This document shows, piece by piece, positions 592 through 882 of a stretch of 27,901 bases of DNA. The notes under the pieces were generated by a model, which did no database searches, was not told where the DNA came from, and saw only the letters and a program-made list of their open reading frames with translations. Within the stretch, counting starts at the first letter, position 1; every line of letters starts with the position of its first letter. The translations under genes were made by a program, and so were the position numbers. Source of the stretch: a virus (Duplodnaviria; Heunggongvirae; Uroviricota; Caudoviricetes). The stretch lies in IMG/VR virus record IMGVR_UViG_3300001765_000297; one strand, 5' to 3'.

Positions 592-882
592 TAACGAAAG
601 AGGATTCATCGCTTGTTCATTATATTTGCGTGTTCATTTTAAATGAACGCTCGATTTAAATGAACAAGAGGAAGTTCAGGACACCGTTGCTAAATGCGGG
701 AGACTCAACGTTAATCGGGGTCGTTACCACCGCAGAGGGTGCAACTTAAATAGACTTAGAGGGAAAGCAACTCTATAATGGTCGGGTTAAGGCACTCCGA
801 AAGGAGCATATCGCAAGGTATGAGATAAATGATGAAATAATTGTTTTAACAATTAAACAGAATCCTGGCTACGCTCACGTTA
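592..882 (+). ncRNA. rnpB: RNase P RNA (compact, rnpB-like)
   Basis: GAGGAAGTTCAGGA (668-681) and ACAGAATCCTGGCTA (857-871) resemble the universal P4 strands. AG(U)UCAGGA 673-681 pairs with UCCUGGCU 863-870 with the bulged U. P1 TAACG/CGTTA (592-596/878-882), P2 TTCATC/GATGAA (605-610/831-836), P3 TTGTTCATT/AATGAACAA (613-621/659-667). GTGCAAC, GGAGCA and AGATAAATGA elements appear in canonical order, with a GCAA-tetraloop hairpin (P18-like) and a P19-like hairpin. Confidence 0.85.

Follow-up and report, generated by a model that had tools for sequence, protein, structure and literature searches.

The stretch of DNA analysed here, referred to below as the window, comprises 27,901 nucleotides (nt) of the IMG/VR virus record IMGVR_UViG_3300001765_000297, and the element in question is a small RNA gene near its beginning, which fills the gap between the end of an upstream open reading frame (ORF) at 512 and the start, at 933, of a gene for a ribosomal protein L7/L12 domain. 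The evidence supports the view that this gene encodes a homologue of the RNA of ribonuclease P (RNase P) which is phage-borne, is reduced in its specificity (S) domain, stands behind a phage-type promoter, and is not the rnpB gene of a host. An earlier, sequence-only reading had assigned a compact RNA of about 290 nt to positions 592-882; compactness is confirmed, while the true span is two bases wider on each side. The features at the locus are the following.

513-543, + strand: repeated promoter-like motif TTGTAACATTT-N10-TTCGTATAAT, -35/-10-like, with a 19-nt spacer
551-584, + strand: hairpin predicted in the 5' leader, its loop containing CUACCC (z -3.3)
590-884, + strand: miniature RNase P RNA gene, P1 to P1, 295 nt
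612-668, + strand: P3, extended here and fully paired; a 3-bp hairpin in the smallest relatives
668-681, + strand: CR-I and the P4 5' strand, including A672, A673 and the bulge at U676; by homology the metal-binding core
682-741, + strand: P5 (682-685/738-741) and, within it, the 5' strand of P6 (687-691) and what is left of the S region
741-744, + strand: J5/15 GCAA, equivalent to E. coli A248/A249; contact to N-1 by homology
745-791, + strand: P15, L15, P16, P17 and L17, with the P6 3' strand at 766-770
795-822, + strand: GAAA hairpin at the P18 position, followed by a GCAA hairpin; neither is obligatory in the family
823-871, + strand: CR-IV (823-831), P2 3' strand, optional P19 (838-855), and CR-V with the P4 3' strand (857-871)

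Architecture of the RNA

The window RNA contains a complete catalytic domain like that of bacterial type A RNase P, consisting of helices P1-P6 and P15-P17, the GGU of L15, and the conserved regions CR-I, CR-IV and CR-V. P1 (590-596/878-884 and 600-602/874-876) and P2 (605-610/831-836) are fully paired, as is P3, and P4 (673-681/863-870) forms eight of eight pairs around a bulged U, which bears out the original claim that P1-P4 pair and that the conserved elements follow in order. The register then given for P4, AG[U]UCAGGA, was wrong, and is corrected to AGU[U]CAGGA with the bulge at U676: columns 675 and 868 covary as a pair (UG 35, GC 9, CG 4, UA 2; n = 50), and U676 is invariant and unpaired. 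L15 carries AAAUA (748-752) facing GGGUU (784-788), motifs also found in cellular RNAs; GGGUU contains the GGU that is, by homology, the element pairing with 3' RCCA. The J5/15 sequence GCAA, which cellular type A RNAs share, is invariant in alignment A1, although the L15 and J5/15 motifs formed part of most of the patterns with which the family was searched. The RNA as a whole has a fold z-score of -4.6, none of 200 shuffled sequences folds equally well, and its sequence is identical in two independent assemblies.

The S region is reduced, as had been proposed, to about 55 nt (family median 46, range 41-87), compared with 163-204 nt in cellular type A RNAs, and contains neither CR-II nor P12-P14. 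What is left is a stem (695-699/730-734), an internal loop formed by GA and 723-729, and a hairpin (702-722). A segment that might have been taken for CR-II, GGUGCAAC (738-745), was rejected, being the P5 3' strand together with J5/15. A length of 290 nt understates the reduction, since the window RNA is enlarged by optional inserts (in P3, at P18 with one extra hairpin, and in P19), and relatives that lack these inserts show a core size of about 200 nt; L017 and L124 are relatives of 200 nt. The GAAA hairpin occupies the P18 position, yet no P8 is evident as its docking partner. Across the family the P16/P17 junction (757-779 in the window) often has an internal loop of GA or UA opposite UAU-GA, which may resemble a kink-turn with the bulge on the 3' strand.

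Homology, covariation and the extent of the family

The assignment to RNase P must be reconciled with the result of the Rfam covariance search that the sequence-only reading had called for, because cmscan of the window, and of positions 500-950, gave no RNase P match even at E ≤ 10, and genome searches with RF00010 likewise missed the RNA in four carriers. Relatives of the window RNA do match the existing models: the copy in the cultured Stenotrophomonas phage DLP6 scores 54.7 bits against RF00010 (E 2e-14), the copy in contig L140 scores 40.8 bits (E 1e-9), and the copy in contig L225, related at the 86% level and among the nearest relatives of the window RNA, matches RF00373 with E 2e-6, all of these scores being below the curated cut-offs (the RF00010 gathering score is 100 bits). 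In the opposite direction, a covariance model built from the phage RNAs weakly recovers two cellular rnpB genes (E 0.003 and 0.009); it scores the window RNA, which is in its training set, at 132.6 bits. It follows from these matches in both directions that the window RNA is an RNase P RNA homologue, yet not type A as Rfam defines type A. The absence of an Rfam match, which the sequence-only reading had named among its grounds for abandoning the assignment, is therefore overridden by the evidence of the family. A blastn comparison of the window RNA with phages returned short chance matches only.

Covariation was evaluated in an alignment of 50 sequences with a mean identity of 59%, using a null model in which partner strands are swapped between sequences, a control that makes no correction for kinship. 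Ten helices covary, both pseudoknots (P4 and P6) included. The helices that provide a fair test are P3, with 97% of positions paired as observed and 68% after swapping, P6 (86 and 53%), P16 (95 and 63%), P17 (91 and 62%), the remnant stem (89 and 68%) and the remnant hairpin (93 and 66%). The figures for P4 (100 and 78%), P5 (98 and 69%) and P15 (99 and 75%) are inflated, because these helices were used in selecting the sequences, and P2 (96 and 63%) was used in trimming them. P1, complete in the window, aligns poorly across the family and is 67% paired. An independent RNAalifold prediction contains 34 pairs, 26 of which show changes on both sides.

The family was delimited by motif scans that differ in what they presuppose. 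A first scan of IMG/VR, with a pattern that did not require P4 to pair, returned 108 loci, mostly due to chance; when P4 was tested in these, 13 paired at 8/8 and none at 7. A tighter pattern composed of CR-I, J5/15 and L15, with neither CR-V nor any pairing rule, gave 33 viral loci, in 32 of which CR-V and a P4 of 7/8 or 8/8 pairs were present. The reverse pattern, which specified L15, CR-IV and CR-V and left out CR-I, found an upstream nAGGAAnnUC pairing at 8/8 in 45 of 49 distinct loci. The family so obtained comprises at least about 140 distinct RNAs in viral and metagenomic contigs, of about 197-386 nt (median 226). CR-II is absent in all 137 family RNAs that were parsed; the CR-III pattern is too loose to be counted, and the remnant S region leaves no room for CR-III. 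This remnant is made up of a stem, a variable hairpin, and a conserved RGRAG strand opposite a strand of 3-8 nt. Large insertions occur after P15 or in the remnant hairpin of some members, such as L314 (6257-6646, - strand), L183 (211-670, - strand), L150, L151, L156 and L195, and L183 has a possible second, partial copy of the RNA upstream. The tree of the RNAs is poorly resolved at depth.

Bacterial type A RNA (E. coli M1 RNA, the rnpB product, and that of T. maritima; RF00010) agrees with the phage RNAs in how P1-P6 and P15-P17 are ordered and paired, shares CR-I, J5/15, L15 (AAAUA/GGGUN), CR-IV and CR-V, and works with a protein of the RnpA type that some phage carriers also encode. The phage RNAs differ from it, apart from the S region, in a P15 of three pairs, in an optional P18, and in a P4 that usually reads AGU[U]C, in contrast to AAG[U]C in type A. 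The type T RNase P of archaea is a cellular enzyme which works with archaeal proteins. In Pyrobaculum and other Thermoproteaceae its RNA has almost no S-domain, lacks CR-II, CR-III, P11, P12 and P18, and has P6 (PMC7191817; PMC5839562). The phage RNAs, likewise S-reduced with P6 kept, most resemble type T in design when compared by published descriptions, and we infer that the likeness is probably one of convergence; the RnpA and the hosts associated with them are bacterial, their S remnant is distinct, and the type T model had no match in cmscan of the window and the relatives.

Carriers, promoter and candidate substrates

The relatives lie in genomes whose identity as phages is clear. Five carriers of 385-519 kb, with a completeness of 95-100%, each contain a capsid gene of the gp23 type along with 39-62 tRNA matches, and further carriers are published huge phages of 595, 635, 642 and 735 kb. 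In DLP6, the only carrier with a known host, which is a bacterium, the RNA (KU682439.2, about 105770-106022) lies in an unannotated gap and ends 3 nt before a tRNA-Arg gene. A tRNA lies within 500 nt at 70 of 137 loci, on the same strand in every one of the 70. Among 185,579 prokaryote genomes (GTDB), a scan with one exact pattern of partial recall (it recovered 12 of the 62 loci of the reverse-pattern scan) returned chance matches, full-length rnpB genes and a single compact copy, which is on a 548-nt contig of tRNAs; plasmids contained no compact copy. The window itself looks, from its sequence, like part of a large phage: several of its proteins have counterparts among the PHROG families, and for one protein the best matches come from huge phages, although no capsid or terminase gene was found in its 27,901 nt, and no related viral contigs were found through a neighbouring protein of 297 amino acids. 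The claim that the RNA is phage-borne and not host rnpB is upheld by relatives in complete phage genomes. Other genes of the window include one resembling inosine monophosphate dehydrogenase or guanosine monophosphate reductase (13270-14349), a deoxynucleoside monophosphate kinase (7127-7696) and a serine-recombinase-like ORF (4056-4637).

Four huge-phage carriers (G003, G007, LR756502.1 and LR745206.1) have both the RNA and a gene for an RnpA of 99-109 amino acids. The phage RnpA keeps the RNR motif, and in the two contexts seen its gene stands among phage-type genes, with no rpmH-rnpA-yidD operon. No RnpA gene was found in 49 of 50 carriers (many of them incomplete), in four of five carriers of a second set, or in three of four of a third. 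Host RnpA is the likely partner for most of these phages, and by default for the window phage. On three contigs that encode a phage RnpA, of which two are fragments, no match to the RNA was found. The phage RnpA family (L322, 1501-1797, - strand; L330, 1501-1803, + strand; P0001-P0120) has 273 homologues, mostly on short metagenome contigs.

The promoter-like motif TTGTAAC-N16-CGTATAAT, described upstream in the sequence-only reading, was recovered at 513-543, and has four exact copies in the window compared with 0.02 expected. TTGTAACATTT-N10-TTCGTATAAT is the longer consensus common to all copies, which precede the RNA at 590-884, two ORFs and a cluster of tRNA-like elements; a variant with two mismatches occurs twice in one relative (G039). 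A phage sigma factor probably recognizes the repeated motif. In the regions 5' of family members, enrichment of host-type promoters was weak (TAnnTTTG 14 against 6.6 expected; sigma70 5 against 2.8) and is given no weight here. In six of 129 upstream regions (the window, L225, L311, L291, L140 and L310), P1 is immediately preceded by a hairpin whose loop contains CUACCC, the stem sequences differing between relatives with pairing kept; the ACCC could pair with the GGGU of L15, or else the repeat might serve as an operator at the DNA level. Directly after the RNA, the gene for a ribosomal protein L7/L12 C-terminal domain (933-1304), a kind of gene already known from huge phages, is preceded by a TAnnTTTG element. 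This element is of a kind found in Bacteroidota promoters, and suggests a Bacteroidota host for the window phage.

The elements of the window that may be substrates of the RNA, and the promoter copy associated with them, are the following.

4010-4082, + strand: tRNA with CUA anticodon and no encoded CCA; candidate substrate
17652-18357, - strand: three tRNA-like elements downstream of a promoter copy; candidate substrates
18382-18412, - strand: promoter copy ahead of the tRNA-like cluster (motif match)

The three tRNA-like elements keep their acceptor, D and T arms, have aberrant anticodon arms, and end in CCA only in the first. U stands at -1 in the CUA tRNA and in all three tRNA-like elements. 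The case for the three elements as substrates, already suggested in the sequence-only reading, is circumstantial: they share the promoter motif and the U at -1, and only one has CCA. Near the CUA tRNA lies a PTH2-like ORF (4685-5035; weak Pfam match) with an in-frame TAG at codon 10. Genome-wide recoding of TAG was rejected, as TAG ends five of 48 ORFs and the genes read normally in table 11.

Probable function and significance of the family

The window RNA is probably a phage ribozyme for the 5' processing of pre-tRNA which uses host RnpA. It would be transcribed from the repeated phage promoter, whose motif is observed and whose use and sigma factor are presumed, and would fold, as the covariation indicates, into the type A catalytic-domain architecture with the P4 and P6 pseudoknots. 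By analogy with the equivalent positions of bacterial RNase P, the bulged U of P4 and the adenosines of CR-I would hold catalytic Mg2+, J5/15 would touch the -1 base, and the GGU of L15 would pair with the tRNA 3' RCCA, as it does in bacterial RNase P (PMC4919922). RnpA, mostly that of the host and in one group the short phage protein, would bind the RNA and the 5' leader, and the complex would cut the 5' leaders off the phage's own tRNA transcripts, recognizing them through acceptor stem and 3' end. As there is no T-loop platform for the tRNA elbow, such an enzyme would probably be slower than the host enzyme and looser in its shape demands. The conserved stem and internal loop found in place of the S-domain would probably stabilize the structure or provide a binding site for a partner.

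That an RNA of this kind can work is suggested by the engineered E. coli catalytic-domain ribozyme (Eco CP RPR), which is active without an S-domain, with or without C5 protein (PMC5839562); it is artificial, and lacks the conserved 46-nt remnant module of the phage RNAs. On its own, the catalytic domain of the E. coli RNA cleaves at a rate about 100-fold lower; it depends on a pairing like P6 and can dispense with P18 (PMC5839562). The phage RNAs keep P6 and the GGU and have dropped P18 in 80 of 136 relatives, and their pattern is therefore that expected of a working catalytic-domain-only enzyme, which makes catalysis by the phage RNA plausible. Several observations nevertheless weigh against the proposed function, in addition to the missing Rfam match and the inflation of some of the covariation figures described above. 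In E. coli constructs, removal of the S-domain carries a penalty of about 100-500-fold (PMC5839562), and the host already owns a full RNase P. A distance of 3.1 kb separates the window RNA from the nearest tRNA, and CCA is encoded in one of the window's four tRNA and tRNA-like genes and in 330 of 766 tRNAs near family members. An RNase P-like RNA of camelpox virus is inactive in vitro, and a role as a decoy has been proposed for it (PMC3001073); that virus is eukaryotic, and its RNA has only some structural similarity to RNase P. A more comprehensive proposal, which we consider slightly more likely than not, is that large phages of several bacterial phyla share a minimal RNase P class of about 200 nt, in which a small new module takes over the work of the S-domain, and which acts in trans with multiple turnover. 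Together with host or short phage RnpA it would rank among the smallest RNase P holoenzymes in nature, and its substrate rules may be altered.

The alternative that survives best, although we consider it unlikely, is that the RNA is an active endonuclease derived from RNase P whose main targets are not ordinary pre-tRNAs, and which dropped the S-domain so as to widen or change its specificity, acting on tRNA-like RNAs, on polycistronic phage RNAs, or on host RNAs with a stem and a 3' RCCA. The elements that read the tRNA elbow are lost in 137 of 137 RNAs and a conserved new internal loop is found instead, the promoter motif of the RNA also precedes three aberrant tRNA-like RNAs in the window, and bacterial RNase P already cleaves non-tRNA and phage RNAs (PMC4919922). 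The strong linkage to tRNA arrays, with the DLP6 RNA ending so close to a tRNA, argues for ordinary substrates, however, and since the tRNA-like elements of the window keep their D and T arms, an enzyme blind to the elbow would not be needed for them. It is less probable still that the RNA is a non-catalytic decoy which interferes with host tRNA maturation by binding host RnpA or tRNAs. Such a decoy would account for the retention of the RnpA-binding half in phages most of which have no RnpA of their own, and the same role was proposed for the camelpox RNA (PMC3001073), but diverse phages have retained the catalytic positions and the GGU that pairs with CCA, even in tests that did not select for them, some carriers add an RnpA, and tRNA-rich phages themselves need 5' processing. 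A cellular rnpB, or a captured one in decay, is very improbable and is largely refuted already: against the lack of a capsid or terminase gene in the window, and the precedent of shortened RNase P RNAs in some bacteria of the Candidate Phyla Radiation (PMC8172020), stand the relatives in complete gp23-positive phage genomes and in a cultured phage, the lone compact match that the scan of partial recall gave among the prokaryote genomes and the absence of any in plasmids, the window proteins that match phage families and huge-phage genomes, and compensatory changes in every helix, which argue against decay.

The proposed processing of pre-tRNA by a phage ribozyme has a parallel in the theta ribozymes of gut phages, which are likewise linked to tRNA genes and proposed to act in tRNA processing (PMC10879173); these are hepatitis delta virus-like, cleave themselves in cis at the 3' trailer, and have a fold unrelated to that of the phage RNase P RNA. 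RNase P RNA counts as a cellular gene, to the point of serving as a marker of genome completeness (PMC8172020). No report of a phage RNase P RNA was found in the literature covered, which includes the paper on huge phages and the DLP6 paper and leaves most subscription journals aside, and the camelpox RNA is the only viral RNase P-like precedent found. Annotations overlook the family, even in the largest published phage genomes and in one cultured phage, because its scores fall below the Rfam cut-offs. The cultured carrier allows direct testing, and more than 100 natural variants that consist of the catalytic domain alone make the purpose of the S-domain, and the minimum size of the enzyme, testable questions. 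A widespread phage RNase P RNA would add the 5' maturation of tRNAs to the translation tools of large phages.
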